Shown: positions 7,029 to 31,590, counted from the first letter of the stretch. The stretch: DNA of 45,346 nucleotides from Candidatus Parcubacteria bacterium (GCA_021731495.1 JAKFXG010000024.1:1-45346), one strand, 5' to 3'. Notes: generated from the sequence alone by a model not told the origin. Program-made: numbers and translations.

Positions 7029-7079
7029 AATTCTCTCTGTTGTATATTGAACGCACCGGCCTCGCGGCCATTTTTATTT

Positions 7080-8864
7080 ATGGAAATCAGGAACATTGCC
7101 ATCATTGCGCACGTCGACCATGGGAAGACGGCTTTGACTGACGCTATCCTCAAGCAAACGGGCGCATCTCCCGAGGGCACCTCAATGGACAGTAACGCGA
7201 TCGAACTTGAACGCGGCATTACCATTTACGCTAAAAATGCGGCGGTCGAATACAAAGGTACGAAGATAAACATCGTCGACACGCCGGGACACGCAGACTT
7301 CGGAAGCGAGGTTGAGCGCGTGCTGCGCTCAATCGACTCGGTGCTGCTTGTCGTTGATGCACAAGAAGGGCCGATGCCGCAGACTCGTTTCGTGTTGAAG
7401 AAGTCGCTTGAGCTAGGTCTCAAGCCGATCGTCGTTTTGAATAAAATAGACAAACCGGCAGCAAATCCCGCACGCTCTGAAGAGCAGGTATTGGAACTTT
7501 TCCTTGAGCTCGGCGCTTCGGATGAGCAGTCTGATTTCCCCGTTATCTACTCGATCGGACGCGAAGGTATTGCGATCAAGAACCTTGACGACGAGCGCAA
7601 GGATCTCACTCCGCTTCTCGACCTGATCCTCGAGAAGGTCCCGGCGGCGAATGCGAATGCAGACGCAAACGCTCCTCTCATGCTTCAGCCATTCAATCTT
7701 GCCTATGACAACTTCATGGGGCGGCTCGCCGTCGGTCGTATTTATGCGGGCACGGTGCGTCCAAATCAGCAGGTATTTATAAAAAAGCCGGACGGCGAAA
7801 CGCGCGCAGGCCGCACGACGAAGATCTTCACGTTCAAAGGACTCGAGCGTGTCGAGGCGACTGAAGCAGTCGCAGGAGACATTGCGCTTATCGCTGGTCT
7901 TCCAGACATTTACATCGGCGAGACGGTGACGACGGACGAGTCTGCCGCACCGCTCCCGGCGATCGCTGTGGATGAGCCGACCATCGCGCTTAACTTCCTT
8001 GTCAACAATTCGCCCTTTGCCGGCAAAGAGGGGAAGTACGTCACCAGCCGCCAAATCCGCGACCGGCTCATGAAAGAGCTCGAGGTCAACGTCGGTTTGA
8101 AAGTTGATTTTGGAAGCGCAGAATTGTTCCGTGTGTCCGGACGTGGTGAGCTCCACATTGCGGTCCTGATCGAGAATATGCGCCGCGAAGGATACGAACT
8201 GCAGGTCTCTCAGCCGCAGGTCATCATTCGCGAGGAAAACGGCGTAAAGCTCGAACCATTTGAAGAAGTCATCATTGATACGCCCTCTGAATTCCAGGGC
8301 GCTATCATCGAGAAGCTCGGCGCTCGCGCGTTCGTACTTCAGAACCTTACTCAGCACGGCAATACCGTCCGCCTCACTATGGTCGGTCCGACACGCGGGC
8401 TCCTGGGCTATAAAAATATGTTCATCATCGATACGAAAGGAGAGGGCATTCTTTCTTCACGCGTGCTCGGCTTCCAGCCGTATGCGGGCGAGATAAAGAA
8501 GCGACAGGTCGGTTCGATGATCTCCATGGCAACCGGGAAGGCGCTCGGCTATGCACTCTGGTACCTGCAGGACCGTGGCCAGCTCTATATCAAGCCGGCG
8601 ACCGAAGTGTACGAGGGTATGGTCATCGGCAACACAGCAAAGGGCGAAGAGATGCTCGCGAATCCGACGAAAGGGAAGAATCAGTCAAATGTTCGCTCCT
8701 CGGGTATGGATGAAGCGCTCACGCTTGTGCCGATATTTGATCTCACCATCGAGCGTGGCATGGAGATCATGTCGGATGATGAGTATCTCGAAATCACTCC
8801 AAAAAGCGTTCGTTTGCGGAAACAATTTCTTAGCGAGAATGACCGTTCCAAAGCACGACGCTAA
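7080..8864 (+). CDS. typA: translational GTPase TypA/BipA
   Basis: [50 protein letters not shown]. Confidence 0.97.
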
Positions 8865-11768: not shown

Positions 11769-12509
11769 CTAAAGAACTCCAGAGATTTCGGCGACGAACT
11801 TATTCGCCGCCATAGCCGGGTCTGGATCGGCCGTGATGGGCCGTCCAATCACCAGGTAATCAGCACCTGCTCGAATTGCTTCAGCGGCAGCCATCGTCCG
11901 ATTTTGGTCGTCCGGCTTACTGTTCACAGAACGTATTCCCGGTGTGACTTTGAGTAATCCTCTGAGTTCTCTTCGTTTACCGAGGAGCTCGAGCTCTTGT
12001 GGCGAACAAACGATGCCGTCACATCCGGCGAGTTTCGCTTCGCGTGCGAATTGGAGGACTTTTGCTTTAGTCGGCCCACCGAAGCTCAGATTAGCGTCGT
12101 TCTCCTCGCGCGATGTCAGCACAGTAACTGCGAGCACAAGCGACCGGCCTTTATTCTCGACGGCTGCCATCATTGCGTCGATACCGGCCGAAGCGTGCAC
12201 GTTGAACATTTTGACGCCCATTCTAGCAACCGCTTTCGAGGCGCCGGCGACCGTGTTGGGGATGTCGTCGAATTTTCCGTCGTAGAAGACTTTGCCGTTA
12301 AGCAAGTGAAAGAGTTCACGGATCTCCTCAAAAATAATGGATGCTTCCGTTCCGCTTTGGGCCGAAGTCAATTGGGCCAACATCGTGGTAGTGAACTCCA
12401 GTCCGACCTTAAATCCACCGACGTATGGAGCAAGCAGCTTCACGAGGTAAAGCGCTCTCGTAGCCGAGTTAACGTCGAGCGCGACGATAATCCTATCTTT
12501 CGCTTCCAT
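11769..12509 (-). CDS. pyrF: orotidine-5'-phosphate decarboxylase
   Basis: IIVALD, FKVG, DGKFDDIPNT, VTVLTS, TPGIR, DDQNR, VIGRPIT; SD GGAGG upstream. Confidence 0.96.
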   Translation of the reverse strand: MEAKDRIIVALDVNSATRALYLVKLLAPYVGGFKVGLEFTTTMLAQLTSAQSGTEASIIFEEIRELFHLLNGKVFYDGKFDDIPNTVAGASKAVARMGVKMFNVHASAGIDAMMAAVENKGRSLVLAVTVLTSREENDANLSFGGPTKAKVLQFAREAKLAGCDGIVCSPQELELLGKRRELRGLLKVTPGIRSVNSKPDDQNRTMAAAEAIRAGADYLVIGRPITADPDPAMAANKFVAEISGVL

Positions 12510-12629
12510 CTGTAACCTCCCATGAATTGAGAACACGTAACTACTTCTGGACAATCCAGCTAATTACTTGGGACTACACTACGTAAAAGCGGGTATAAAG
12601 TCAAAGCTGGAATATATTATAATTTGGTT

Positions 12630-13082
12630 ATGGAGTACAAGAAAGTACGGAAAATGTCTGGATTAGAAGCTGCATATTTAGCTGGATTGATTGATGGCGA
12701 AGGAACGGTGACTTTGACGAAGAGAGAAAAGAACGCACAGCGGGCCATCACGATTACAATCGCAAATACCGAACGTGAACTCTTAGAGTATCCCATGCGC
12801 GTTATCAGTGCGGGCATTATTTCTTCCAAGCGAACGCAAAAAATACACCACACGCCTTCGTTCGTATATCGGATAACTGGACGACAAGCGCTTTCCGTTC
12901 TACAACAAATTGTTCCCTACTTACATTCTTATAAGAAACAGCGTGCCAAATTCGTTTTGGCTGAATATATCAACATTACGCCACGCAATGGACGATACAA
13001 TCAAGATTTGTTGGAGAGGAAGAAGATCTTCGACGAGAGATTTTTCCAGATAACTGCAAAACAAACAACACCCTCGAAATGA
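12630..13082 (+). CDS. free-standing single-motif LAGLIDADG endonuclease
   Basis: AAYLAGLIDGEGT, ITIANT, PYLHSYKKQRA; TATAAT 6 nt upstream of ATG 12630. Confidence 0.88.
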   Translation: MEYKKVRKMSGLEAAYLAGLIDGEGTVTLTKREKNAQRAITITIANTERELLEYPMRVISAGIISSKRTQKIHHTPSFVYRITGRQALSVLQQIVPYLHSYKKQRAKFVLAEYINITPRNGRYNQDLLERKKIFDERFFQITAKQTTPSK

Positions 13083-13096
13083 AGGTGTTGTTTGTT
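13060..13096. terminator. 13-bp hairpin, probable native tmRNA terminator at the empty att site
   Basis: AACAAACAACACC-11 nt-GGTGTTGTTTGTT, T-rich end on both strands, 5 nt from the outer att core. Confidence 0.75.
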
Positions 13097-13273
13097 AATG
13101 ATGTGGAGACTGATGAATGACGTTAGAACCGCTGTGCGCGATTGCGAAAATAGGCAGTATATACAATCTCTTAAAGAATTTAGTAGCACATGTGAATCGC
13201 GGGTCGTCTAGGGTAGATTGCGGGAATACGTTAGAACCTTTCACTTCCTAGTGTAGAAGAGTATGCTGATCTC

Positions 13274-14170
13274 ATGACGGATGATGAAAACATCAAGGCG
13301 GTGATAACGGCAGAAGATTTCAAAAAAAGATTCAATCTTAAAAACATTGGTTTTCCAGAACCAACCGTTTTTTCTAATGCAGTCGGTATTTCAGTAAAGA
13401 AGGTCTACCCAGATGAACATGCTTCGATGTATGGCGTTGAGATATCTAGGAGGAGGCCACAAACAACACCTTTGTTAAGCCTAGATGCTCATGTTGTCTA
13501 TGGAAAAGACACAAAAGATGGCGTGACGTTGATGATGGACAAGAAACTATCCGAGCCGATAGATTTGGATTTCACAGATGAATTTTCCTTCGATACCAGT
13601 ACAGGCAAGTTTTACCATCGAGGACGACAAATTGAGCCGGAAGAAATCTTCTCAATAATGGATACAGCTCACAAAAAGCCAACAAAGTTAACCGCGGGTT
13701 TACTATTAAGGATAAGGCTGTGGATATGGAGAATATTAATCCCACATACAATAAAGTACCTAGACCTCTTTTTAATAAAAGCACTCTGGATTATTTCCGG
13801 AGAAAAAATCAAGGGAAACATTTGGAGGCGAGTAGTTAATATCTACTCCAGCATAAAGTCCCAGATAGAAGAAGATCAAGATTTTGTGAAATCAAAACCA
13901 ATGGATTTTTTTGGGTATGAGGCAAAAAGATGGTCCGTTGTATTTTACTGCTCTCTTCATTTGGCTATATTCTCTTTCTTTTACTGGAAAGGCATCAAGT
14001 ATACTTTCGTAACTCAGATTCTAGATAACAACTTTCTTGCGCTGTGTTACGTCGTAGTTTCGTTTGCATTTACCGAGTCATGGCTTCCCAGACGTATTAA
14101 ATCGATCATAAACGAAATTACGCCGCGGGTTTTCAGCAATATCTCCAATAGGAAAATTTCCGTAAGTTAA
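13274..14170 (+). CDS. hypothetical membrane protein
   Basis: 298 aa, soluble N-half, hydrophobic segments in C-half; TATGCT 6 nt upstream; AT-rich. Confidence 0.75.
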   Translation: MTDDENIKAVITAEDFKKRFNLKNIGFPEPTVFSNAVGISVKKVYPDEHASMYGVEISRRRPQTTPLLSLDAHVVYGKDTKDGVTLMMDKKLSEPIDLDFTDEFSFDTSTGKFYHRGRQIEPEEIFSIMDTAHKKPTKLTAGLLLRIRLWIWRILIPHTIKYLDLFLIKALWIISGEKIKGNIWRRVVNIYSSIKSQIEEDQDFVKSKPMDFFGYEAKRWSVVFYCSLHLAIFSFFYWKGIKYTFVTQILDNNFLALCYVVVSFAFTESWLPRRIKSIINEITPRVFSNISNRKISVS

Positions 14171-14248
14171 TTACGGACCCAGTAGAACCTCCAATCCGTT
14201 AAGACGCGCAAAACGGAACATGGAAGAACGTGAATAATATATACCGAT

Positions 14249-14362
14249 GTGGACATCTCGGCAGAAAGTTGGAACTCAATTCAGGACTTCGTGTTCGGTT
14301 GGTACGAAGCGCTACATGGCGCAGGGATGGTGCCCAACGGCGCAAAATTGGCTCACGTTTAG
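14249..14362 (+). other. inner att junction encoding a detached recombinase C-terminus
   Basis: GTGGA-N5-CGG matches 23274 GTGGA-N5-CGG in codon phase; open for 37 codons, VDISAESWNSIQDFVFGWYEALHGAGMVPNGAKLAHV*. Confidence 0.7.
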
Positions 14363-14399
14363 CGTCCTGGAGTCACATGGTGGTAATTGAGTATATGGG

Positions 14400-14951
14400 C
14401 TAAAGGGGTTGAATTGAGGCAAGACACTCGTCGAATTGTTCGGCTGTGAGAACAAGCGCATTATCCGTTCGAAAGGTATTCTTTCCTACTCCTGCGAGAT
14501 AGCGAAGATATACACGCTGTCGAAGAAATGCGTTAAAGGCTTTCTCCGATCGGGCTACGAGTACTCCGATCCTGCCAAGGGCAGATGCATTTACCAGATC
14601 CCCAAGACAATGTTTTTTGCTGCCGCTATCTTCGACCTCGATGCAAAGGAGGCAACGTGCGTTTTCGTTGAAATACATTATTCGATCAAGTGACGTGCGA
14701 TCCTCGGCGTCCTCAACATTTCGATTGTGTCTTTCAATCAGCATCTCAATAAATTCGCGTGTTTCTTCGAGAAGTTCTGTGTACCGTGGCCCGTATCTAC
14801 CTTCGATAGCGAAGGGACCTACGGCTATATCCACCACAGGGGCATAGATTTGTCGTCCCTGCCCTCGGAATGGATACCATTGGACTTCGACATCTTCGTA
14901 TATTCGGTCGAGGAGAGTCTTCGCAGCATTTTCGTACTCGCGTTCCGTCAT
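14400..14951 (-). CDS. PD-(D/E)xK restriction-endonuclease-like protein
   Basis: EVEVQW...VVDIAVGP...CIEVEDSGSKKH pattern. Confidence 0.6.
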   Translation of the reverse strand: MTEREYENAAKTLLDRIYEDVEVQWYPFRGQGRQIYAPVVDIAVGPFAIEGRYGPRYTELLEETREFIEMLIERHNRNVEDAEDRTSLDRIMYFNENARCLLCIEVEDSGSKKHCLGDLVNASALGRIGVLVARSEKAFNAFLRQRVYLRYLAGVGKNTFRTDNALVLTAEQFDECLASIQPL

Positions 14952-15030
14952 ACAAGAATATTCTCACATCAACACTCTTCTTGCTACGGCAAAACTCGAC
15001 CGCGCAAATGCGATACAATGGCAGTATATT

Positions 15031-15891
15031 ATGAATGCGGTAACACAAGGTGCGTTTCTCCTAAGGATCAAGACGCTAACGGGAATCGCTTTCCAGGACT
15101 TTCTTAACGAGTTGTATACGGCGGCCTACGGATCATCCTTTGTATCTATCAAGCAAAAGAGGGATAAGGGATGTGACGGAATACTGAATGGTAATACGAT
15201 ACTCGCGGCGTACGCTCCTGAAAAATACGAGCTACGAACCTTCAAGAAAAAATATGGTGAGGACTTTGATTCTTATAAGCAGAACTGGTCTTCGACGCAC
15301 TCAAATTGGCAGGTGGTCTACAATGGTGAGCTACAAGCGAATGGAGCCCAGTATCTAACCGAACTCAAAGCCGACGTACAGATTATTCAGAGAGGCCAGA
15401 TTGTTGCTATAGTTGCATCTCTTCCTTGGGAGAAGAAGCGCTCGCTCGCGGCATATTTGAAAGTGGACGACCAGTTCCTAATCAACGATGCGTTGGAAGA
15501 AATAATCGACGACCTCTCTAAAGAGGTTGCTCCCTCTTCAATCGTGTACGCGAAGCCACTCTATATGCCGGATAAGGTTGCTCTGAATTTCACTCGTATC
15601 GAGGCAGATACAATTTTGGCAGAATACGAATCGTACATGGAGTATTTCATCTCGTTAAAGGGGTTGCTGACTGCCGATGGCGAGAGAGTGGGAAATCTCA
15701 AGTCCAAAATCTGCAGAGATTACGTGGGGCACAGCGGGTCTTGCAACGAAAGACTCACTGCTATGACAGAAGAATACGCTGGAAAGAAGGTCGGGGATGA
15801 CTGGTATCAGAAAATGATTCGAGTTGTACTGGTATACTTTTTCGAGCAATGTCTGATTGGAGAAAAAACACCACACGAATCCCATGCTTGA
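15031..15891 (+). CDS. lmuA: Lamassu/ABC-three-component effector (nuclease-like N-domain plus CTD)
   Basis: FQDF...DKGCDG...AYAPE N-terminus, C-terminal YFFEQCLIGEK typical of ABC-3C CTDs; first of three overlapping genes. Confidence 0.75.
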   Translation: MNAVTQGAFLLRIKTLTGIAFQDFLNELYTAAYGSSFVSIKQKRDKGCDGILNGNTILAAYAPEKYELRTFKKKYGEDFDSYKQNWSSTHSNWQVVYNGELQANGAQYLTELKADVQIIQRGQIVAIVASLPWEKKRSLAAYLKVDDQFLINDALEEIIDDLSKEVAPSSIVYAKPLYMPDKVALNFTRIEADTILAEYESYMEYFISLKGLLTADGERVGNLKSKICRDYVGHSGSCNERLTAMTEEYAGKKVGDDWYQKMIRVVLVYFFEQCLIGEKTPHESHA

Positions 15892-16114
15892 TTTACACCC
15901 AGAAAGCGATTTAACTCTCAGTCCTGTTGTCCTTGGGAGTGCCATAGCAACTTCACTCAGTCCAAGTAAGTATGAGTTCATCGACTCTGTCATGAAAGAG
16001 TTTCTTAGTGCTGACCCTCGACGCAGTACAGAGCAATTCATGGATTCGTTAACCATGCTCTATGCACTCGGGCTCGTAGAGTACTTCGGGCACCGAATAA
16101 AGCTTCCAAAATGA
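15884..16114 (+). CDS. lmuC: Lamassu/ABC-3C middle component
   Basis: 76 aa, wHTH-like ...SLTMLYALGLVEY; overlaps both neighbours. Confidence 0.75.
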   Translation: MLDLHPESDLTLSPVVLGSAIATSLSPSKYEFIDSVMKEFLSADPRRSTEQFMDSLTMLYALGLVEYFGHRIKLPK

Positions 16115-17883
16115 TATTTCTTAGAAAACTTTATTCCGAATCTAAACTTTTTGAACCTGTCGAATTTAAGAATGGCATTAATGTGGTTCTTGGACGTTAC
16201 TCTTCAGGGAGTGATAGCAAAGAAATTAACGGTATTGGTAAATCAACTTTCGTAAGACTCATCGACTACTGCCTTGCGTCAGAGGGGTCAAAAAGATATT
16301 TCGATGTCAAAAAGAAAACCTTTTTGAAGGGCCATAGCTGCACACTGGTGGTTGAGATTAATGGTACAGATTATTTAATTCAGCGTTTTTTTGACAAGGC
16401 ATCCATCACTTTTGCTGAGATTGGAGGTGCTGTCGATCCCGTGGAATATACGGATAAAGAATTTCGGAATGTCTTGGGCGCGAAATTCTTTGCACAAGAT
16501 CCTTATGGTGGGGTAATAGAAAGCAACTGGTACCGAACCCTCCTCAACTTTTTTATTAAGGACGACGTCGATCGTCACGAAAGAAACGATCCTCTAAATT
16601 TTCTTAATCCATCGATCCGCAACTCATTATTGCTGGTGTATAATTTTTTCCTTTTGAATCTTCCAAATGGAAATATCTACGATTTCGATAAACATTCCGA
16701 AAAGGCGAGGGATCTTCGTGAGACTAAAACCAGCATTGAGAAACAATCGGTAGAGTTGTCTGGAAAGCGATTAGAGGATCTTGAATCGGAACGCTCTCAG
16801 ATCGAGAAGAAAATAAAACTGATCGAGAAGAGCCTGAAGGAATTCCAATTCATCGATAACTATAAAGACATACAAAACAAACTTGTGGAGCTTTCGGTGG
16901 CAATCTCTACGAACCTGCAAGAATCGAGTTCGCTTAGGAGGCGATTGCAGGCTATAGAAAGTAGTTACGCAATCGATATTTCCGTTGATATTGAGAAGGT
17001 TAAAAGCATCTACGAGTCCCTCAAACAGGGGCTCGGTGAGGCAATTGTACGCCCGGTCAAAGACGTCATTACTTTCAGGAAGGAAATAGCGGAAAATCGG
17101 AGGACTTTCCTGACCACTAAGGAAAGAGAAATCAAAGACGCGATAGGAGTGGTGAATAAGAAAATCATTGAGCTTGAAAGCCGACGAATAACACTCTATA
17201 AAACCTTGGATGAAAAAGAGGCGATGGACAGCATCCGGAACTCATACGAAGAGCTTATAGAGTATCGCTCCCAACTACAGCAGAATCTTGCTGTTACAGG
17301 CAAAATTGCTCAGCTGAATGAGGCGATCGCAGATCTCGATTTACAGATTTCTGGTGACGTCAAAAACCTTGTTGCCCAGCAATTAGTATTCGCCGATAAG
17401 GTAGAAGAGCTTCAGGGGATCTTTACGGACTTCGTTCACACAGTCGTTGGGCAAAGCCAGTCGATCGGATCTGCGTACTTCGATATTAAGACTCGTCCGG
17501 ATAAAAGATCACCTGTGCAGGTGACTATCGAGGTTCCAAAAAGTGCGTCTTTGGGCAAATCACGTTTCAAGATACTGGCTTACGACCTAACTGTTTTCTT
17601 TAACCTTATAGACGATCAGCGAGCCCTACCGCATTTCTTGCTCCACGACGGAGCTTTCCATGGAATCGATATAAAAACGACTATAAACGTTTTGAACTAC
17701 ATTGCTAAACGATCCGAAGGTAGAAGGTTCCAATATATATTCACCGCTAATGAGCATGAAATCGACTCCTCAAGTCATGAGGGGTCTTATGGGCAACTCA
17801 GTTTCAATCTCAAAGATGCGACAATTCTTGTCTTGGAGGATAAGCCCGAGAAGATGTTTCTAAAACGGGAATTTCAATCTTAG
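16111..17883 (+). CDS. lmuB: SMC/Rad50-like ATPase (DUF2326-type)
   Basis: Walker A NGIGKST followed by IDYCL, long coiled coil, SLGK signature, Walker B FLLHDG, FQYIFT. Confidence 0.85.
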   Translation: MIFLRKLYSESKLFEPVEFKNGINVVLGRYSSGSDSKEINGIGKSTFVRLIDYCLASEGSKRYFDVKKKTFLKGHSCTLVVEINGTDYLIQRFFDKASITFAEIGGAVDPVEYTDKEFRNVLGAKFFAQDPYGGVIESNWYRTLLNFFIKDDVDRHERNDPLNFLNPSIRNSLLLVYNFFLLNLPNGNIYDFDKHSEKARDLRETKTSIEKQSVELSGKRLEDLESERSQIEKKIKLIEKSLKEFQFIDNYKDIQNKLVELSVAISTNLQESSSLRRRLQAIESSYAIDISVDIEKVKSIYESLKQGLGEAIVRPVKDVITFRKEIAENRRTFLTTKEREIKDAIGVVNKKIIELESRRITLYKTLDEKEAMDSIRNSYEELIEYRSQLQQNLAVTGKIAQLNEAIADLDLQISGDVKNLVAQQLVFADKVEELQGIFTDFVHTVVGQSQSIGSAYFDIKTRPDKRSPVQVTIEVPKSASLGKSRFKILAYDLTVFFNLIDDQRALPHFLLHDGAFHGIDIKTTINVLNYIAKRSEGRRFQYIFTANEHEIDSSSHEGSYGQLSFNLKDATILVLEDKPEKMFLKREFQS

Positions 17884-17891
17884 AGTAGTGA

Positions 17892-19193
17892 TTATCGCCA
17901 CCATCCGAAGAAGAAAGACTTTAGTTTTTCAAACAGACTCTGTTTCTGAAGAGGCGTAGATTGTGTAGATGGGGCTTGGTTTAGTAGATTACTCGTTGCG
18001 ACCCTAAAAGAAGTCGATGCAATAGGGTCTTCGACATTAGGAACTCTCTTTGACTGTCCTAAGTCATTCGCTCTGGTTGCTTGCATTGCGCCAGAATTAC
18101 CTGCAATTGGCACTACATCGGGCGCCACGCCGTACTTTGCCTGATATTCTGCCCGAGTCATCTTTACTGGTACAGATACACCTCCATTTTTTGCCGCCAA
18201 AGAAGCGTAGTCAGGTGCAGTAGTCTGAATACATTTTGCGGTACTTGTATCCCACTGGTAACCAGTTTCGCATCCGCAGATGACACTTTTATTCACTGAA
18301 TCTACATATGCATCGACCCTATTAGTAGCGCCGATTCCGCTTTCAACTTTGCACCAAACGTTTAGTGGAATGCATTGATATGGGCTATTAGCATCGGGAC
18401 CAAAACCAGTGACACACTCACACCGATTAATTTCGCTATTATAGTAGCCAAACTGACCGTGATCTGTTTTGCAAGACATTGCAGATGCAAGCAAGGATTT
18501 GTAGTAGGCACTCTCCTTTTCTAATCGAGCAAGTTCAACAGCTTTATCGCCAATACTATCCAACGCCTGATTCTGTGTGCTGCTCATGCACTGGTTGTAT
18601 TGGTTTAGCTTCTGTTGGTATGTGTCGATGTCAGATCGGCATTGGCTCAAACGATTATTGCTCACGTCAGTAGCGAGCAATCCGGTAGCTCCATCTGATG
18701 CTCTCATGCTTGAGTACTGGCTTTCTGATGTGCACCCCGAGCTCGAAGGGTAAATGCATTGTACAAAGATTCCCGTCGAATTTTGACGTTGCAATTGGTA
18801 TAACCTCTCATCTATAGTTTTCCGTTCTTGTTCCAGTTTATTTTGAAAATCCTCTTGGGCCTTGAGAAGTTTTTTGGAAGGGTCTGGTAAGGGGACTGTT
18901 TTTAAGCCTCCCGAATTAAGAAGCTTGTAGAGATTCGTGTCACCACTACTTTTAATGCCGTAGTAATTTGAAAGGTATGTGTCGGGATTACCAGAAGTGA
19001 TTTGACCAGTATTGGGATTTAAATTGCCAGGGAAACCGTAGTTGTTGTAGGGATTGCTATCGACGTCGGTTCGGTAGTAAGAACCTACAAATGTGTCTCC
19101 TCGGTAGTACGGACTCACGAGAGTCGCTGCGTGTGAGAATGAAGGGAACCCGACCAGCAAGAAGAGAGCCGCAAATACCAATTTCTTTTCCAT
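17892..19193 (-). CDS. secreted cysteine-rich protein
   Basis: signal peptide MEKKLVFAALFLLVG..SHA, YYRGDTFVGSYYRT..NNY domain, coiled coils, EGF-like CxC..G..C repeats, S/T/P tail, aromatic C-terminus. Confidence 0.8.
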   Translation of the reverse strand: MEKKLVFAALFLLVGFPSFSHAATLVSPYYRGDTFVGSYYRTDVDSNPYNNYGFPGNLNPNTGQITSGNPDTYLSNYYGIKSSGDTNLYKLLNSGGLKTVPLPDPSKKLLKAQEDFQNKLEQERKTIDERLYQLQRQNSTGIFVQCIYPSSSGCTSESQYSSMRASDGATGLLATDVSNNRLSQCRSDIDTYQQKLNQYNQCMSSTQNQALDSIGDKAVELARLEKESAYYKSLLASAMSCKTDHGQFGYYNSEINRCECVTGFGPDANSPYQCIPLNVWCKVESGIGATNRVDAYVDSVNKSVICGCETGYQWDTSTAKCIQTTAPDYASLAAKNGGVSVPVKMTRAEYQAKYGVAPDVVPIAGNSGAMQATRANDLGQSKRVPNVEDPIASTSFRVATSNLLNQAPSTQSTPLQKQSLFEKLKSFFFGWWR

Positions 19194-19220
19194 ACATCCT
19201 ATGTTTTTGGTTGGTAACGC

Positions 19221-19299
19221 AAAACCCGCCACCACGAACCCTTGCGGGTCTACCAAGGTTTCCCTTGGCAACATAGGACATGCCGTGATGACGGGTTTT
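19221..19299 (-). ncRNA. C4-like cloverleaf antisense RNA
   Basis: 79 nt; 16-bp closing stem AAAACCCGTCATCACG/CGTGGTGGCGGGTTTT; three hairpins (GAAA and GCAA loops); complementary targets up- and downstream. Confidence 0.72.
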
Positions 19300-19443
19300 C
19301 TATGTCCTATGATTTCGTAACCATGCCAACGCCTGAGCGGTGGTTTAGGTCAATGCAGTCCGAAAGTGGACTACAGTAGCATCGTATCAGGATTGAGCTA
19401 AAATGGGTATATGAGGCGAATGATCTTAGGGTTTTCAGAATGA

Positions 19444-19995
19444 ATGCTTATGGCGGTAAAAACTACACAAACTAAGCGTCGCGTCAGTTTGGTTGAAAAG
19501 GCTAAAAAGGATAAGGAAGTTGGGGCTGGTGTAGGACGCGGAAACAAGATGGAGAGCACACGAGCAGCTTTCCGAGCGTGGTTACTGAAGCCGCGTATCT
19601 TTTTGGGGAAAGGAGAACACGTGCTTAATCTTTTGGGGATTACGGATGTAGAGACTGTCGAGCTCTATAGCATCCGATCGCAAGGTGAGTTCTCGGAGAA
19701 GTTTGGGGTGGGAGAACCAACACTGTCTCACTGGAAACGAGAGATGCAGAACGGTAACGACTTTAAGGACTTCCAAATTGAGATGCGCGGACTTACAAAA
19801 AATGTGATGGGTGCGCTCTATCGTCAAGCGATGGCCGAGGGTGACGCTCCTCGTGTGAAGCTATGGCTACAAACCGTTGAGGGCTGGAATGAGAGCAGTA
19901 ATTTCAAAGTGGCAATGGGGGTAGAACAAGGTCTCACGGACGAAGAAAAAGCTGCAATTGATCGTATGTTGGAAAAACTCGGAGCACCAACTTAG
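19444..19995 (+). CDS. HTH protein, terminase small subunit-like
   Basis: SQGEFSEKFGVGEPTLSHWK HTH followed by VMGALYRQAMAEGDAPRVKLWLQ. Confidence 0.55.
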   Translation: MLMAVKTTQTKRRVSLVEKAKKDKEVGAGVGRGNKMESTRAAFRAWLLKPRIFLGKGEHVLNLLGITDVETVELYSIRSQGEFSEKFGVGEPTLSHWKREMQNGNDFKDFQIEMRGLTKNVMGALYRQAMAEGDAPRVKLWLQTVEGWNESSNFKVAMGVEQGLTDEEKAAIDRMLEKLGAPT

Positions 19996-20002
19996 TGTAG
20001 AG

Positions 20003-20752
20003 ATGACAAAGCTTTTGAACCCCTCACGACTTGATTGGATAGCGTTTCTTGCTTGTCAAAACGCTGTCCGACTCCATCGTGATGCCATTGCACTGTACAA
20101 AGAAGGACGATATCCATCTGCCTTCTTTTTGTCGATCCTTTCTCAGGAAGAACTTGGCAAGATGCATATGATTAATGATCATTCGTGGCACTTAGGCGAG
20201 TGGCTGAATGACTTATTGGAAATCAAAGATCAGGCAAAACGTGCCGCTATGGATAAGGAGAATGAAAAGTATCAATCTGAAGTTTTCTCATCCTCCTATC
20301 TCCATCCTCTTAAGCAAGGATACTTCGCCCATAATTCTCCTGTAGAGGATTTTGTCTGGTTACGCAAGGCATTAAAGCACGGGGAACCCCGCCAAGATGT
20401 ATGGCAGGGCGTGCTCGACGCAAAGAAGCAGACCGCAGCCTATGTCGGCTTTCCAAAGAAGAAAAGAGGGGTTGATTTTAGTGCTGGCCTGAAACATCCA
20501 TGGCAAATCAAAAAAAGAGATGCACAGAGACAGATAACGAGAGTCAACGATTATCTCTTGGTTTTTGGATTGGGGCTACGATATACATGTTATGTGTTTG
20601 AAAATGAAGACATAATCAACTATCTAAAAAACAAGCGATTTCTGAAAAACATCGGACTCACTTGGCAACACCGAAGTAGATCTGCTTTCAAGCAGATAGA
20701 GTCTCTTCAGGTGGTGCTAAAAGACAAGATCGTTAGAACGACAAAGAGGTAA
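20003..20752 (+). CDS. AbiV-family (HEPN) abortive infection protein
   Basis: NAVRLHRDAIALYKEGRYPSAFFLSILSQEELGK, HPLKQ, KQTAAYVG. Confidence 0.85.
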   Translation: MTKLLNPSRLDWIAFLACQNAVRLHRDAIALYKEGRYPSAFFLSILSQEELGKMHMINDHSWHLGEWLNDLLEIKDQAKRAAMDKENEKYQSEVFSSSYLHPLKQGYFAHNSPVEDFVWLRKALKHGEPRQDVWQGVLDAKKQTAAYVGFPKKKRGVDFSAGLKHPWQIKKRDAQRQITRVNDYLLVFGLGLRYTCYVFENEDIINYLKNKRFLKNIGLTWQHRSRSAFKQIESLQVVLKDKIVRTTKR

Positions 20753-20764
20753 GATAGAGCGATT

Positions 20765-21454
20765 ATGCGTGGTGACACCAAGAGTGACGAACTTTTCTAC
20801 CAGATTTCGCTCGGGGATGTTTTTCAAACGGATGTCAGAAATTGTCGGGATAGATTTTCCATTCCGAAAGACGGATTGGATGCAGAGGATATTCGGCGAT
20901 GGTATATCTCTCTCGGCGATAAATATGGCGAGTTTTTAGATGTGCTTACAGATATTCTGCGACGCTATAAATTAGCGAGTTCTTTTATTAATCCGTTAGA
21001 GGAGTATGTAGTTACCAATGAAACTCAGAATTTATATCCACTTCGGCCACATCCTTTTTATGATATTGATACACCACAAGGTTATTTGGCAGAGCAACAT
21101 AGAAAAGATGCGAAACCGTTCGTAAGTTTATTGATTTATGACTACGCCAGCTTGGACGAGATTCAGGCGTACCTAAAAACCTCATGGAAGTACGTCAAGA
21201 AAGAACTCGATAAACAGCGTGGTGAACCGGCGCACAGAATTCGCAGGTCAACACACAAAGAACGAGATAGAGAAGTTCTTGCGCTCTACGAGAAATCACG
21301 CGAGGAACTTGGACTCAAAAAGGGAGAATACAAAGAGATGGCTGTAGCTCGGATGCTTTCTGGAAAGTACGGAACAATTGATTGGGATCACATTAAGAGG
21401 ATTGTTGCGCGAATGCGAAAGATGAAAAGGGGAACTCATAAACCTCCTGTTTAA
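20765..21454 (+). CDS. hypothetical protein, basic C-terminal HTH-like domain
   Basis: 229-aa ORF; ERDREV...VARML...IKRIVARMRK. Confidence 0.7.
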   Translation: MRGDTKSDELFYQISLGDVFQTDVRNCRDRFSIPKDGLDAEDIRRWYISLGDKYGEFLDVLTDILRRYKLASSFINPLEEYVVTNETQNLYPLRPHPFYDIDTPQGYLAEQHRKDAKPFVSLLIYDYASLDEIQAYLKTSWKYVKKELDKQRGEPAHRIRRSTHKERDREVLALYEKSREELGLKKGEYKEMAVARMLSGKYGTIDWDHIKRIVARMRKMKRGTHKPPV

Positions 21455-21478
21455 GAGTCCTCTACTCATTTGTCTTTG

Positions 21479-21508
21479 AAGGCGACCATTGGCATATGGT
21501 CGTTTTTT
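21479..21508 (+). terminator. intrinsic terminator
   Basis: GCGACCAT-TGGCAT-ATGGTCGT followed by TTTTT. Confidence 0.75.
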
Positions 21509-21574
21509 GCGACCTGGTGACGTCACTGGAACAGCCGGCAGCGTACGTCACCACGCTACCGGCTGTTCCAATTC

Positions 21575-21775
21575 ATGCTTACCTTACAAGAATGCCGAAA
21601 ATACACAGGGAGCGAACTCACCGATGAAAAGTTGGAGGAGGTTCGTAATGTCCTGTATGTCTTTGCTAATAAACTGGTCGACGATTTCTTAAATTTAGAG
21701 GATGAGCCAGTCAGTTCAAACTACCCACATGAGAGGGTTGCAATTGTGTCGATACCAAGGCACAACATCAAGTAA
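21575..21775 (+). CDS. small helical protein upstream of the recombinase
   Basis: 66 aa MLTLQECRKY..LTDEKLEEVRNVLY, ends 7 nt before the recombinase ATG. Confidence 0.65.
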   Translation: MLTLQECRKYTGSELTDEKLEEVRNVLYVFANKLVDDFLNLEDEPVSSNYPHERVAIVSIPRHNIK

Positions 21776-21782
21776 GCTTCGT

Positions 21783-23348
21783 ATGTCACAACTCGCACTC
21801 ATATACGCTCGTGTTTCGTCAGAGAGACAGGCGACAGAAGGTCACGGCCTTGATGCACAGGAACATCGCTGTCGCGCCTACGCTGAGACAAAAGGTTATG
21901 AGATTGAAAAAGTATTCAGGGATAGTTTTAGTGGAGGCGGAGATTTCATGAATCGACCAGCGATGTCTGGCCTACTCGGCCATGTAGATAAATTTGCACA
22001 CCGAAGTTACGTCGTGCTTTTTGATGATCTCAAGAGACTTGCAAGGGATACGGCTTTTTACTTGAAACTCAAGGATGCATTTAGAGTTCGCGGCGTTAGG
22101 TTGGAGAGTCCGAATTTTGTAATGGATGATTCTGATGAAGGTTCGTATGTTCAGCAAATTCTGGTAGGGGCAGCAGAACTGGAGCGCAAGCAAAATAGGC
22201 GACAGGTTATTCAAAAGCAAAAGGCTCGACTTGAGAGAGGGTACTGGTCGTTTTGCCCGCCTACAGGATATCGCTTCGAAAAACATCCTGAACATGGGAA
22301 GCTTCTCGTGCCCATTTCTCCCGACGCCGAACTCATTAAGCTCGCATTAGAAGGTTACGCATCGGACAAGCTATACGATCAAACCGCTGTTCGAGATTTT
22401 CTCAGAATCAATAATTTTAGGAATGGTCGCACTGTTCATATGTCATTGGTACGGCGACTTCTTACTGAAATCCTTTATGCTGGGTACATAGAATATGTTG
22501 GATGGGAAATAGCGAGGCGTAAAGGATATCACCAAGAAATGGTAAGTATTGAGGTGTTTGATCGGGTTCAGGCGAAACTGACTGGTAAGTCATATTTGAT
22601 TTCAAGAAAAGATTACCGTCTCGATTTCCCTTTACGAGGGTTCGCTCTTTGTGAAGAGTGCGGAGGAGCGCTTACGGCAGCTTTTGCAAAGAGGAAATAT
22701 CCCTATTACTGGTGTAAAAGGGCTGGATGTTCATTGAAGAATAAAATGATTTTGAGGGAAGAAATTGAAAAAAGATTTGATGCACTACTTAAAGAGATAA
22801 AACCGCGGCCAGAGGTTTTAGAACTTTCCAATAAGATCCTTCTTGATGTATGGAACGAGCGAGTAAGCAAACTCGAAGGGTATCGTACAGTTCTGCAAGG
22901 AAAGCTACGGATCGCACGCAGTCAAATTGACGGGCTATCGATGCGCCTTGCGAGGGCACAGAACGAAGACCTGGTGGGCGTTTATGAAGACCAGCTCATT
23001 CGCGCTAAGCGCGAAGAACGAACGCTGGCAGAACGCATCGATCGACTCTCAGAGCGCTCAGGGGACTTCGAAGAAGCTTTGAAGCAAATGTTTGCGGTGC
23101 TGCGTAACCCGGCAGCTGTATGGGCAAAACCGGATATAACGCAGAAAAGATCAGTTTTGAAGCTGATCTTTTCTGCGAAATTGCGATATAACCCTGTGTC
23201 TGGGTTTCAAACACCTGAGAAATCCTTAATTTACGGGCTATTTGAGCAAATCTCTGCTCAAAAGTCCCAACTTGTGGAGGTGGCGGAAATCGAATCCGCG
23301 TCCGAATCCGTCTATGAAAGCGAGTCTACGACGCGTAGTCAGCGTTAG
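21783..23348 (+). CDS. large serine recombinase (integrase)
   Basis: IYARVSS catalytic motif, FSGG..RP, DDLKRLAR, PTGY recombinase domain, Zn ribbon CEECG...YYWC...C, coiled coil; last 24 codons are antisense to tmRNA. Confidence 0.95.
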   Translation: MSQLALIYARVSSERQATEGHGLDAQEHRCRAYAETKGYEIEKVFRDSFSGGGDFMNRPAMSGLLGHVDKFAHRSYVVLFDDLKRLARDTAFYLKLKDAFRVRGVRLESPNFVMDDSDEGSYVQQILVGAAELERKQNRRQVIQKQKARLERGYWSFCPPTGYRFEKHPEHGKLLVPISPDAELIKLALEGYASDKLYDQTAVRDFLRINNFRNGRTVHMSLVRRLLTEILYAGYIEYVGWEIARRKGYHQEMVSIEVFDRVQAKLTGKSYLISRKDYRLDFPLRGFALCEECGGALTAAFAKRKYPYYWCKRAGCSLKNKMILREEIEKRFDALLKEIKPRPEVLELSNKILLDVWNERVSKLEGYRTVLQGKLRIARSQIDGLSMRLARAQNEDLVGVYEDQLIRAKREERTLAERIDRLSERSGDFEEALKQMFAVLRNPAAVWAKPDITQKRSVLKLIFSAKLRYNPVSGFQTPEKSLIYGLFEQISAQKSQLVEVAEIESASESVYESESTTRSQR

Positions 23349-23679
23349 TGTCTAAGGCAGGATGCGAGGAACGCAGACGAAACCATTCCTGCCCGATCCC
23401 TTGTTTAGATGTACCGGCCAGGATTCCGGACATCGATCCTACAGATAATTCCGCCCATTCCTCTCGGCTGTAGAAACCCGGAGGATGAACGTCGCGAGGC
23501 GAAGAGCCGTTAGGCTTTCGCGTACGCGAACGCGAAGTCATTCATACCGAAGTATGGCGACTTCACGCTTGCAAGAGTGTTCTTTGCAAGTATGTTTTCC
23601 CGCCAGATTAAAGTGTTGGGCGGGAGTGCACTGCGTCGCACATCTTTCAAGGTACAGACCGTCAAAGCCGGTCACCCCC
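23275..23679 (-). ncRNA. ssrA: tmRNA
   Basis: 5' GGGGGTGACCGGCTTTGAC, 3' GACGCGGATTCGATTTCCGCCACCTCCA with G3-U70; tag ORF 23587-23510; smpB upstream; CCA not encoded. Confidence 0.95.
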
Positions 23680-23682
23680 CTA

Positions 23683-23770
23683 GAACATATCTTGCTGCAA
23701 GATATGTTCGGGCGAACATTTCGTCTGACGAAATGTTTTAGCCGTAAACATACCATCACTTTGGTATGTT
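23683..23770. repeat. three tandem AACAT...ATGTT palindromes
   Basis: 23683-23709 (13-bp arms), 23715-23737 (11-bp arms), 23747-23770 (9-bp arms). Confidence 0.8.
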
Positions 23771-24022
23771 CTTAAGCCAGTCTAGCAGTATCTTCTTTTT
23801 CGTGCGCGCTCCCCAAAGACTTTTGAGAAAACGTTCACGACTGAAAGCTTCTGTTTCCGATTCGAGCTGTTCAGCATGGATGAGATCAAGCGGCCTACGA
23901 TTGGTCGTTGCTGGAACTTGTCCATCCTGATGACGTTTCAGTCGTTCCGAAATATTGCTAGTGCACCCAACATATAACCCGTGGTCTTTATGACTGTAAA
24001 GAATGTAGACCACATAAGCCAT
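23756..24022 (-). CDS. small GIY-YIG nuclease
   Basis: YVVYILYS...LYVGCTSNISERLKRH...T..RRP...AFSRERFLKS. Confidence 0.93.
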   Translation of the reverse strand: MAYVVYILYSHKDHGLYVGCTSNISERLKRHQDGQVPATTNRRPLDLIHAEQLESETEAFSRERFLKSLWGARTKKKILLDWLKNIPK

Positions 24023-29329: not shown

Positions 29330-29403
29330 CCGTCCCTAGCTCAATTGGTTAGAGCACCGAGCTTATACCTCGGCGGTTCCTGGTTCGAGTCCAGGGGGAC
29401 GGA
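29330..29403 (+). tRNA. tRNA-Ile(UAU)
   Basis: acceptor CCGTCCC/GGGACGG, anticodon arm CCGAG-CTTATAC-CTCGG, T arm CCTGG-TTCGAGT-CCAGG, discriminator A. Confidence 0.93.
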
Positions 29404-31590
29404 CTATTCTAAATGCATCTCTTTGTCGGCAGTGAGCGCGCGGAGCGCGAGGGCAGGATGCTGCTGTAGTTCTGGGTCGCTGGCAACGAGGTGCGCTGCC
29501 TCGGTACGCGCGGCCTCCACGAGTTTAATGTTCTTCAGCGCTTCCATTGCGATGTCGGAGACACCCCACTGTTTGCCGCCAGAAAGTTCTCCTGCACCAC
29601 GGAGCGCGAGGTCATATTCAGCAAGCTCAAAGCCGTTCTTCGCAGTGACGAATGCTTTGAGGCGGTCTTTCGTCGTTTGTCCGAACGATTCGGGGAGTGC
29701 GAAGCAGTATGACTGATGCGTTGAGCGGATGACACGGCCGCGCAGCTGATGCAACTGCGCGAGTCCGAAGCGCTCGGCTCCTTCAATGAGAATGACCGTC
29801 GCATTTGGCACATTCACACCCACTTCGACGACCGAAGTCGCGACGAGAATATCAATTTCTCCTTTTTCAAATCGCTTCATTGTTTCTTCTTTCTCTGCCG
29901 GTTTCATTTTGCTGTGAAGGATGTCTATCGTTGCGTTTTTGAATACTTCACGCGAGAGGCGTGTCGCCTCTGCTTTTACGGATTTTGCTTGAAGTGCGAA
30001 TTCCTTTGCCGGATCCGGTTCGTCAATGCGCGGACAGATGACATATGCCTGATGACCGGCGGCAAGCTCCGCGCGTACGCGCTCGTAGGCAAGTTCGCGT
30101 TTCTCCGGGCCAAGTACTTCGGTGATGATGGGCTTTCTCCCTAGTGGCATCTCGTCAAGGATTGAAAGATCAAGGTCGCCATAAATAGTGAGCGCGAGCG
30201 TACGCGGGATGGGTGTCGCCGTCATCGAGAGTAGGTGCGGCGCAATGACGCCCTTGGTCGCAAGTTTTTGTCGGTGCACGGTACCGAAGCGGTGCTGTTC
30301 GTCGATGATGGCATAGGCGAAGTATTTAAATGAAAGGGACTTCTCTATGAGCGCGTGCGTGCCGATGACAATTGGTATTTCGCCATTGGCGACCATTTTT
30401 TTAAATGCTGCTTTGGAAAGTTTTGCTGACTCTTCGTAGCGTACTTTCGACGGGAATTTCCGGCATTCACTTCCGGTGATGAGGCCGATTGGGATCGGGT
30501 GGTCCTTGAAATAAGAGACAAAGGTCGAGAAGTGCTGCTTCGCGAGGATTTCAGTCGGGCAAAGGTACGCGACCTGGAGTGTGCCGGCAATCCGCCTTTC
30601 GCCCCTAAGGGGCCCCTTCGGGGGGAGCGAAGTCGCGACGAGGTACGCGGTCGCCGCCGCGACCGCAGTCTTGCCGCTGCCCACGTCGCCCTCGAGGAGC
30701 CGAAGCATGGGATGCGTTTTCTCGAAATCATCCACAATGGTATTGATCGCGCGCATCTGTGCGGTAGTTGCAGGGAAGGGGAATGATGCGACGAAGTCGG
30801 CAAGCGCCGTGCGGTCGACCGAGACCGGCAGGGCCTCCTCTTTCAAGAGGGCGCGGCGGCGCTGTTGCATGACAATCTGGAGCGCAAACACTTCTTCAAA
30901 AGCGAAACGCTTGCGCGCTGCCGTTGCGTCATCGAGCTTGCGCGGCGCGTGTATGAACACAAGCGCAGAAGAGAGTGTGGGCAAATTGTATCGCGCGAGA
31001 ATGTCCGAAGGTATAGGGTCGGCAATGTGTTCGTGCACGTTTGTCTCAAATACTTTTCGTACCGCGTGCAGGAACCAGAGCGAGGACACCCCCTGACTCT
31101 CCGGGTAGATGGGGTAGAGCGTCTCGCTCTCTATTTCGGCGCCTTTGGTAAATAATGAGTCGTGTATTTCGTCCGGCGCAATGGGCGACTTATCGATTTC
31201 CGGATTTGCAAGATACATTTTTGCGTCTTCACCAGCTATGCGCCCACTCACTTTTACGACCATGCCATCGTGGAGTGTTTTCGCGATGTAGGGTTGACTG
31301 AACCACATCATTTTTATTTTTCCCGATGCGTCTTCGAGCCATGCTTCGGCGACTGGCCGACGACTCTTCCACGTTCTCCTGATGTCGGGCTTACGCACAG
31401 TGCCGTACAGCGTGACTTCAGTGCCGGCTGTTGCGCCCGCGATCGTTCCTGTCGGACCTGCATTCTCGTAACGGGCAGGGAAGTGATAGAGCAGATCGCG
31501 AATGGTCCGTATACCAAGCTTATGGAGCGCCCGCTTCTGGTCGGGTTTCAGTCGGGTGAAATGGTGTTCGATGGTGTCTTGCAGATTCAC
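29404..31590 (-). CDS. recG: ATP-dependent DNA helicase RecG
   Basis: DLLYHFPARY wedge, EGDVGSGKT, PTEILA, DEQHRFG, MTATPIPRTL, AERFGLAQLHQLRGRV. Confidence 0.97.
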   Translation of the reverse strand: MNLQDTIEHHFTRLKPDQKRALHKLGIRTIRDLLYHFPARYENAGPTGTIAGATAGTEVTLYGTVRKPDIRRTWKSRRPVAEAWLEDASGKIKMMWFSQPYIAKTLHDGMVVKVSGRIAGEDAKMYLANPEIDKSPIAPDEIHDSLFTKGAEIESETLYPIYPESQGVSSLWFLHAVRKVFETNVHEHIADPIPSDILARYNLPTLSSALVFIHAPRKLDDATAARKRFAFEEVFALQIVMQQRRRALLKEEALPVSVDRTALADFVASFPFPATTAQMRAINTIVDDFEKTHPMLRLLEGDVGSGKTAVAAATAYLVATSLPPKGPLRGERRIAGTLQVAYLCPTEILAKQHFSTFVSYFKDHPIPIGLITGSECRKFPSKVRYEESAKLSKAAFKKMVANGEIPIVIGTHALIEKSLSFKYFAYAIIDEQHRFGTVHRQKLATKGVIAPHLLSMTATPIPRTLALTIYGDLDLSILDEMPLGRKPIITEVLGPEKRELAYERVRAELAAGHQAYVICPRIDEPDPAKEFALQAKSVKAEATRLSREVFKNATIDILHSKMKPAEKEETMKRFEKGEIDILVATSVVEVGVNVPNATVILIEGAERFGLAQLHQLRGRVIRSTHQSYCFALPESFGQTTKDRLKAFVTAKNGFELAEYDLALRGAGELSGGKQWGVSDIAMEALKNIKLVEAARTEAAHLVASDPELQQHPALALRALTADKEMHLE

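Follow-up and report, generated by a model that had tools for sequence, protein, structure and literature searches.

In mycobacteriophage BPs, the attachment site attP is located within the repressor gene, and integration swaps the C-terminus of the repressor and alters its stability. The target of Myxococcus phage Mx8 is a tRNA gene. In this phage, attP lies inside the integrase gene int, and integration results in a new 3' end and altered behaviour of the integrase (IntP/IntX), as described in the available sections of PMC6070905. Mx8 and SSV are both listed as integrases that extend across attP in the available text of the Islander paper (PMC4383910). In this study, a 45,346-nt stretch of DNA from a Candidatus Parcubacteria bacterium (the window, meaning the whole stretch) was analyzed, in which positions 14248–23272 are E2, a 9,025-bp integrative defence island at the extreme 3' end of a transfer-messenger RNA (tmRNA) gene. 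The island carries the gene of a large serine integrase that reads across the attachment site.

Mx8 is the closest precedent for this island and was not named in an earlier note on the same DNA. In both cases, attP is located in the integrase gene and the C-terminus is changed on integration. However, Mx8 Int belongs to the tyrosine recombinases and uses a long attP, whereas the island enzyme is a serine integrase with an identity block of 5–7 nt. Furthermore, the trait of the island occurs throughout a subfamily with many different tRNA and tmRNA targets, unlike that of Mx8; the layout is alike, but the two are not relatives. In BPs, which has a tyrosine integrase, the affected gene is instead that of the repressor. 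SSV1 and pNOB8 likewise carry the attachment site within the integrase open reading frame (ORF), and integration changes the gene (available text of PMC7253208 and PMC4383910); however, these are tyrosine enzymes whose gene is split into two large halves and inactivated, whereas in the island the terminal tail alone is exchanged. The island enzyme works like Mx8 IntP, yet it is a member of the large serine integrases.

Serine integrases are prized as tools for their strict direction, which is set by a separate factor. In the canonical large serine integrases, a directionality factor acting on the coiled coil sets the direction (PMC3783163 and PMC11722253, in the sections available). The systems of phiC31, Bxb1, SPbeta and A118/LI resemble the island in domain order and fold, and a small conserved gene also lies beside the island integrase. 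However, the att sites of the canonical systems lie outside the integrase gene and their targets are mostly protein-coding, whereas the island uses the 3' end of a tRNA or tmRNA gene and its integrase has a state-dependent tail of its own. Tycheposon-like elements of Prochlorococcus, 27 of 937 of which encode a large serine recombinase (10.1101/2020.12.28.424599), are similarly small cargo islands beside tRNA and tmRNA genes; they differ in their host, and the available part of that source has no word on an integrase that crosses attP or changes its C-terminus. A search of open-access papers and bioRxiv found no report of a serine integrase with a gene crossing attP or with a C-terminal swap.

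The finding presented here is that the integrated integrase ends in codons taken from the tmRNA gene, while its native C-terminal tail lies detached at the other end of the island, from where recombination would restore it. The structural part of this reading, namely the integrase, the tail, the cores, the tmRNA layout and the in-phase rejoining, is held with high confidence, and the whole statement, including a hedged functional part, is given a probability of about 0.8.

Integrase gene and tmRNA target

The ORF at 21702–23348 (+ strand), which is open from an ATG at 21702, encodes a large serine recombinase. The integrated isoform spans 21783–23348 (+) and has 521 amino acids (aa) from Met 21783, as does its own record in the protein database (P0001). 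Matches to Pfam comprised Resolvase (E = 5.3e-22, residues 32–181), Zn_ribbon_recom (28.9 bits against a cut-off of 25.3) and Recombinase (19.2 bits, slightly under the cut-off of 21.1). In addition, PHROG 95, 'integrase', matched at 1e-59, and the catalytic domain resembles that of TP901-1 integrase (1.5e-12). The R-V-S-S block is invariant across the integrase alignments, and the N-terminal catalytic domain is of the resolvase type with a nucleophilic serine. An AlphaFold model of a homolog (P0079; 48-row alignment, mean predicted local distance difference test, pLDDT, of 84) has long helices at 346–394 and 398–426; together with Pfam, it places the Recombinase domain, zinc ribbon and embedded coiled coil after the catalytic domain. 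Foldseek matched this model to the full-length serine integrase chains 9dxh, 9iu2, 9tep and 4kis with E values of 1e-18 to 1e-10. The island enzyme belongs to the large serine integrases by fold and family and is a serine recombinase, without the tyrosine chemistry of Mx8. All of the recognised integrase domains stay in one 521-aa ORF after integration, and there is no SSV-type split into two large dead halves.

The target is a tmRNA gene at 23272–23679 (− strand), which is complete after integration: Rfam RF00023 matched with 105.8 bits over model positions 1–374, and ARAGORN placed the gene, with its tag peptide, at 23274–23679. The CCA is incompletely encoded, both here and in a relative with an empty site (G014). 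The integrase frame reads ...S-Q-L-V-E-V-A-E-I-E... across TGTGGAG at 23273–23279 and stops at 23346–23348, which places the crossover site within the 3'-terminal part of the integrase ORF. Its last 24 codons (23274–23345), from Val 23274 to the stop, are the antisense of the tmRNA 3' end, with an overlap of approximately 75 nt. This copy of the core (copy 3, +) is the attR core and corresponds to the acceptor-stem end, the discriminator and the first trailer bases of the tmRNA.

As in Islander-type elements, the island adjoins an intact tmRNA gene and carries its own integrase. A displaced target-gene fragment of tens of nucleotides was not found at the other end; just 6–7 nt of the tmRNA end are present at 13102 and 14248, and neither blastn of the tmRNA end against the flanks of relatives nor the junction alignments revealed a longer tmRNA fragment at these two positions.

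The detached C-terminal tail

The second core copy, TGTGGA at 14248–14253 (+), is the attL core of E2 and lies 9025 nt before the third (23273 − 14248). From the GTG at 14249, a frame is open for 37 codons (VDISAESWNSIQDFVFGWYEALHGAGMVPNGAKLAHV) and then stops; it is in phase with the integrase frame. TGTGGA occurs five times on the + strand within 12000–24000, so the hexamer alone is at chance level. Position 14248 stands above chance because the encoded tail is homologous to integrase tails, and not because of the hexamer. A profile of the tails of eight contiguous homologs had its sole match in the window at 14234–14359 (E = 4.8e-10; the next was 0.52 among 1606 six-frame pieces of the window). 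Furthermore, a DNA profile of 42 tails from other loci, with the window left out, had its sole match at 14249–14320 (E = 4.1e-10; next best 1.3). The segment at 14249–14362 (+), comprising 37 codons to 14359 and the stop, is the detached C-terminal tail of the integrase and the P' arm of attP, i.e. an alternative, in-phase C-terminus at the far end of the element.

The tails of the best 120 of 572 homologs were examined. Ninety-six end in what resembles a translation of the antisense strand of a tRNA or tmRNA (e.g. ...VEMGGIEPP or ...VDPTGLEPATPSLQMRCSTR), whereas eight are uninterrupted (P0010, P0036, P0068, P0079, P0092, P0093, P0099 and P0119) and end in ...V-D-[IM]-x4-S-W-N-x-[LI]-x-x-[WY]-[VI]-F-E.... 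The remaining 16 fit neither pattern, some being cut by contig ends; two of these, P0077 and P0086, have a related helical tail behind a different core. The longest contigs of the eight contiguous homologs are 3.1–12.4 kb, compared with mapped element sizes of 3.8–10.3 kb. The window tail matches V-D-x5-W-N-x-[LI]-x2-[WYF]-[VI]-[FL], an amphipathic-helix motif seen in 43 unique tails.

Most of this layout had been proposed in the earlier note. Its reading of the recombinase ORF through TGTGGA at 23273, with 24 codons from antisense tmRNA, was borne out by the frame, Rfam and ARAGORN, and the in-phase frame of 37 codons after TGTGGA at 14248 by the sequence; the overlap of the integrated mRNA with the tmRNA 3' end, put at 74 nt, agrees with that given above. 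The VDxxxxSWN-like tail expected in homologs is present, contiguous in 8 of the 120 and split in integrated relatives, and the proposed alignment to uninterrupted homologs yielded the protein-profile match at 14234–14359. Excision of the 9,025-bp unit would, as suggested, rebuild the integrase with its tail to give 534 aa. On the other hand, the GTGGA-N5-CGG match offered as support adds nothing, the 6-mer being at chance level.

Related loci

For comparison, 162 loci were fetched: 80 from genome contigs, 80 from metagenome contigs and two family members from viral contigs. An opposite-strand tRNA or tmRNA 3' end was found at the same alignment column (offset −2 or 0) in 105 of the 155 loci that contain the integrase 3' end; the targets were tmRNA (33), tRNA-Ala (40), tRNA-Thr (11), tRNA-Tyr (8) and others (13). 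A further 14 loci run off the contig, and ARAGORN called no gene in 36. According to a statement from 2015, tRNA or tmRNA genes were not known as targets of serine integrases (PMC4383910, available text); the 105 loci exactly at such genes bear on this statement.

Among loci with at least 9 kb upstream, a same-strand tail-coding piece was found upstream in 23 of the 28 with the Patescibacteria-type C-terminal motif (two of the other five have weaker matches) and in three of the eight in the 'other' motif group. In 42 of 45 tail/integrase pairs, the GTG with which the tail begins and a GTG in the integrase frame fall within an identity block of 5–13 nt common to both ends (GTGGA, TGTGGAC and similar, as in core copy 2), and the tail and integrase would be joined in phase. 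The spacing between the two is 3.8–10.3 kb, a range that includes the 9,025 bp of the window. The split layout is the rule in the Patescibacteria-type serine integrase subfamily that targets tRNA and tmRNA 3' ends.

Tandem arrays present the tail in its rejoined state. In L212, the upstream integrase reads into the tail of the next element and the downstream integrase reads into the tmRNA, and in L213 the integrase ends in ...VEITENEWNQILDFVIRWYNTL, which is close to the window tail. The arrays are located at 1179–8887 of L212 (contig G246:C2) and in L213 and L214 (G230:C12); the downstream element of G230 carries ABC-3C-like and restriction-modification-like genes.

Many loci in the ranges L056–L111 and L173–L211 belong to Rhodobacterales and other Proteobacteria. 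These relatives, at approximately 40% identity, also end in tRNA antisense codons, and no tail matching the Patescibacteria profile was found within 10 kb; larger islands or tails of another kind are possible reasons.

Selection on the tail

No gaps are needed to align the 43 unique tails. All 43 begin with GTG, Trp8 and Asn9 are nearly invariant, and 41 are open through at least 24 codons. Several positions vary in their codons: position 11 is Leu or Ile via five codons, position 14 is Trp, Tyr or Phe via TGG, TAT, TAC, TTT and TTC, and Ser7 is encoded by AGT in 21 sequences and by TCT in four. For codons 10–22, which are past the usual reach of an att half-site, the pooled ratio of nonsynonymous to synonymous differences (pN/pS) was 0.55 in the integrase frame and 1.12 and 1.24 in the other two; the Jukes–Cantor ratios were 0.23 versus 1.2 and 1.4, with synonymous sites near saturation. 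The substitutions are codon-periodic in the integrase frame only, so the tail is constrained at the protein level, in the frame continuous with the integrase. In the integrated state, the tail is preceded by the host terminator, whose sequence varies between loci. Translation from the rejoined integrase gene is the only conserved route to the tail peptide.

Chromosomal junction and crossover position

The first core copy, TGTGGAG at 13102–13108 (+), is identical to the last 7 nt of the tmRNA in antisense and marks the true junction between the chromosome and the inserted DNA. The empty site in G014 consists of a LAGLIDADG gene, a terminator hairpin, TGTGGAG and then the tmRNA; positions 12629–13108 of the window align to 6976–7455 of this locus (L015), and the window from 23273 aligns to it from 7449. 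The original intrinsic terminator of the tmRNA is found at 13040–13095 (−), as a 15-bp hairpin followed by UUUUG on the tmRNA strand (−26.1 kcal/mol, z = −6.05). It aligns with the hairpin directly 3' of the tmRNA in G014 and is now 10.2 kb from its gene. From the empty site and the position of the terminator, the host flank (LAGLIDADG gene, terminator hairpin and last 7 nt of the tmRNA) ends at 13102–13108, and the chromosomal junction is at 13102, not at 14248. A promoter and terminator scan of 12900–23800 gave counts under the shuffled expectation.

The earlier note had taken 14248 as the island end, which is correct for the tail-bearing E2 but not for the chromosome border. Its attB joined the right end of the preceding segment, E1, to the tmRNA, whereas the pristine site consists of the terminator and the tmRNA, as in G014. 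Its suggestion that the terminal LAHV of the tail is a degron is not supported, as the C-termini of the tails vary among relatives. The structural part of its interpretation is supported, without the attB and the degron.

The identity blocks between tail and integrase are 4–13 nt long and all include the GTG(G) of the Val codon, which fits short att sites without a long direct repeat. On the RNA strand, the shared G-T-G(-G) covers the final pairs of the acceptor stem, the discriminator and the base after it. Symmetry scans did not single out an exact crossover dinucleotide. The E2 reconstruction gave 14/22 at 'CT', two bases left of the core and outside the shared block (99th percentile of the null, 11); a reconstruction based on 13102, which has the wrong P' arm for E2, gave at best 12/22 with its centre outside the identity block, and 37 reconstructions across the family gave weak peaks (8.0/24 at −3 and 7.8 at +2). 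The 'GG' centre of GTGGA has symmetric neighbouring bases. Because the crossover takes place in an identity block of 5–7 nt at the Val codon of the acceptor end, the RNA gene remains intact and no gene fragment is duplicated. Only the trailer is replaced by the element, which explains how RNA genes can be used without harm by a recombinase that has such a small overlap.

The 66-aa integrase partner

Directly upstream of the integrase, an ORF at 21575–21775 (+) encodes a 66-aa protein of a conserved family with the pattern MLSIEECRKYLG..LTDxQVExLRDALY... that has no match in Pfam, PADLOC or PHROG. Homologs lie on the same strand as the integrase in 25 loci and are adjacent to or overlap it in 24 of these: in 22, the end of the gene falls between −120 and +200 nt relative to the integrase start, in two the gene overlaps the integrase by 123 nt and in one the distance is 560 nt. 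Directionality factors of serine integrases are often encoded directly upstream of the integrase, and the 66-aa protein is a candidate, putative directionality factor.

Proposed mechanism

E2 is inserted at the tmRNA 3' end by an integrase whose reading frame crosses the attachment site. In the integrated state, the integrase ends in the 24 tmRNA-antisense codons, with the native 37-residue tail stranded at the other end of the island. Recombination between the cores would rejoin the integrase and tail in phase, producing the 534-aa protein on the excised circle. This tailed isoform, which could be made from the circle only, would be the selected form, most likely for integration. The tail-less isoform may work with the 66-aa protein in excision, or may be weakened such that the island is stabilised. 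Moreover, as the tmRNA gene has been separated from its terminator, read-through transcripts would be complementary to the integrase message and could damp the integrase further.

A difference between the isoforms in activity, directionality or stability is a prediction, for which purifying selection on the tail is the sole, indirect sign. The more specific proposal, that this subfamily of Patescibacteria uses a state-dependent exchange of the C-terminal helix to control direction, with the tailed form driving integration and the tail-less form either turned to excision by the 66-aa protein or kept quiet, is tentative, at somewhat under even odds. If true, an integrase whose C-terminus depends on the integration state would bring a novel, self-contained level of control and a new way to set the directionality of serine integrases, and RNA genes would be targetable by a 2-bp crossover without the element carrying a gene copy. 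The system also provides a handle on the mobile defence islands of the little-studied Patescibacteria, including the 66-aa partner and an RNA that rides on the islands.

Several observations weigh against the proposed tail exchange. No circle or empty-site junction was found for 12800–23700 in the assembled contigs of four runs from one study, probably the one from which this DNA derives: in each run, one contig covered the whole stretch in the integrated form only, without joints. Because contigs drop rare forms, these data are silent on excision. A 195-nt contig of depth 2 with 11 differences represents the tmRNA of a relative with its hairpin flank. Likewise, a free contiguous form was found in none of the 162 fetched loci (including 0 of the 80 metagenome loci, the viral contigs providing just two family members) and in none of 50 matches from an order-level search of 401 genomes, a tally that includes an unpublished genome (G273) on which nothing else here depends; 46 genomes had a match, none of which reached the tail. 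The ends of one 5,092-bp contig (L143) overlap by 94 nt, but the reading frame of its integrase does not continue into the tail. The eight contiguous homologs are known as proteins, their circularity being unproven, and chromosomal tandem arrays also give rise to contiguous forms. The 60 loci with the proteobacterial-type motif, 35 of which have at least 9 kb upstream, yielded no tail with this profile (0 of 35). In the P0079 model, the tail is poorly placed, with pLDDT below 50 for most of 490–534, maybe owing to a thin alignment there; a helix is drawn at 511–531, which says nothing on docking of the tail. A predicted complex of integrase residues 140–497, the 66-aa protein and the tail scored 0.02 against a mark of 0.32, which is not evidence either way. 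Finally, E1 DNA, instead of the native terminator flank, forms the B arm at 14248, so E2 may no longer be able to excise on its own.

Alternative explanations

The split gene might be a neutral by-product, in which the gene merely overlaps attP, the tail has a general role in folding or solubility, the isoforms behave alike and the 66-aa protein alone sets the direction. The position of the small conserved gene, a frequent one for directionality factors, suits this explanation, as do the undocked tail of the structure model and the integrated-form tails, which vary in length and sequence with the target RNA and seem to be tolerated. However, a dispensable tail should decay, whereas the tail is under in-frame purifying selection and 41 of 43 copies have kept it open for at least 24 codons, although it is translated only after excision as part of the integrase; the by-product explanation is considered to be rather unlikely. 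It is less likely still that the arrangement acts as a lock, with a tail that is essential for recombination, such that integration disables the enzyme and locks in the island, which could then be excised only by a tailed integrase supplied from another copy, such as a tandem neighbour or an incoming circle. SSV-type integrases do split their own gene ('Pervasive suicidal integrases', PMC7253208, available text), tandem arrays restore the tail to the upstream integrase, and the contigs of the four runs contain no excised form. Nevertheless, only the last 24–37 residues change here, with the catalytic, recombinase, zinc-ribbon and coiled-coil parts intact, and the family occupies many different tRNA and tmRNA genes with an intact integrase and tail, implying frequent movement.

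Other explanations concern the layout itself. The 37-codon frame could be a separate small gene that starts at the invariant GTG and is unrelated to the integrase C-terminus, since GTG is first in 43 of 43 tails and can be a start codon. This is highly improbable: the invariance of the GTG is explained by the crossover core shared with the integrase frame, the upstream DNA is host terminator DNA that differs between loci, and the same peptide is fused to the integrase in eight homologs and two tandem arrays. Least credible is a chance match at 14248, whereby the island would be one 10,171-bp unit (13102–23272) and the excised integrase would end in ...LVETDE. The host flank does end at 13102–13108 with the 7-nt tmRNA end, and TGTGGA is frequent (five copies in 12 kb), but the tail homology at 14249 in both protein and DNA (E = 4.8e-10 and 4.1e-10) already contradicts a chance match. 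In addition, the tail profile has no match at 13103 even at E ≤ 100, and a three-residue tail has no counterpart among the homologs.

E1 and other integrase-less segments

Between core copies 1 and 2 lies E1 (13109–14247), a separate, integrase-less segment of 1,139 bp with one 298-aa ORF at 13274–14170 (+). The ORF has no Pfam, PADLOC or PHROG match, E1 contains no integrase remnant, and the segment is absent from 18 tmRNA flanks of relatives. The left end of E1 was considered as a decayed tail, as 11 of 22 bases match after 13108, but the tail DNA profile gave no match even at E ≤ 100. E1 may be what is left of an earlier element, or it may be a satellite.

Integrase-less segments of 0.8–1 kb are also found ahead of the main element in L043 (4949–5783) and L055 (4152–5124), and such add-ons therefore recur. 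Unlike E1, each has its own intact or near-intact tail-coding left end; they may be satellites or deletion remnants. The right end of the L043 segment also carries a 13-nt piece of a tRNA end.

Cargo of the island

Two ORFs at the left of E2, at 14400–14951 (−) and 15031–15891 (+), have no Pfam, PADLOC or PHROG match. They are followed by an ABC-3C-like defence pair at 15857–17883 (+), consisting of an MC8-like 85-aa ORF (15857–16114) and a DUF2326/AAA protein (16111–17883); the matches were Pfam MC8 (1e-4, under the cut-off) and DUF2326 (5.1e-23), and PADLOC PDC-M68B (4.3e-68) and LmuB (3.9e-17). A 460-aa ORF with an N-terminal hydrophobic stretch at 17892–19274 (−) has homologs on related islands (phmmer 5.5e-89 in L090 and L156, weaker in L134 and L148). 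The remaining cargo at 19444–21454 (+) comprises a 183-aa ORF, an AbiV-like HEPN protein (19958–20752; Pfam HEPN_AbiV 9.3e-18, PADLOC AbiV 2.8e-6) and a 229-aa ORF. A PHROG scan of the island found no phage structural or conjugation matches.

A LOOT RNA (RF03000) at 19237–19351 (−) scored 68.9 bits against a gathering score of 46.4 and abuts the start of the 460-aa ORF. It was also found in 11 of 22 related loci scanned, in either orientation and, in all loci with both island ends mapped, between the tail end and the integrase: L134 4865–4985, L090 8375–8495, L034 9507–9623, L148 1446–1570, L038 7463–7575, L175 3338–3453, L146 7224–7351, L150 7780–7893, L168 5302–5426, L137 3841–3952 and L164 4842–4963. 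A literature search found no functional paper on this orphan RNA.

Neighbouring genes and further observations

Beside the tmRNA terminator, a free-standing LAGLIDADG homing-endonuclease gene of low G+C is located at 12624–13082 (+). It is kept at the same place in G014 (76% identical protein) and is absent from another relative, G013, in which pyrF lies approximately 510 bp from the tmRNA. An 88-aa ORF with a GIY-YIG nuclease domain occupies 23756–24022 (−), between the tmRNA and smpB.

In L019 and L025 (genomes G023 and G004), a plus-strand stretch that resembles an acceptor end (e.g. ...CTCCACCTCCACA) is found approximately 60–75 nt left of the tmRNA 3' end. In these loci, as well as in L014, L037, L060 and L143, the stretch is located just before the shared terminator hairpin and faces the tmRNA or tRNA gene; it could be an RNA gene in convergent orientation, the scar left by a former element or the attachment core copied in inverted form. 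Near the target tRNA region, matches to group I introns (RF00028) were obtained at 11868–12115 of L035 and 2050–2309 of L038. The window also contains a tRNA-Ile gene with anticodon TAT at 29330–29404 (+), as do several related loci.

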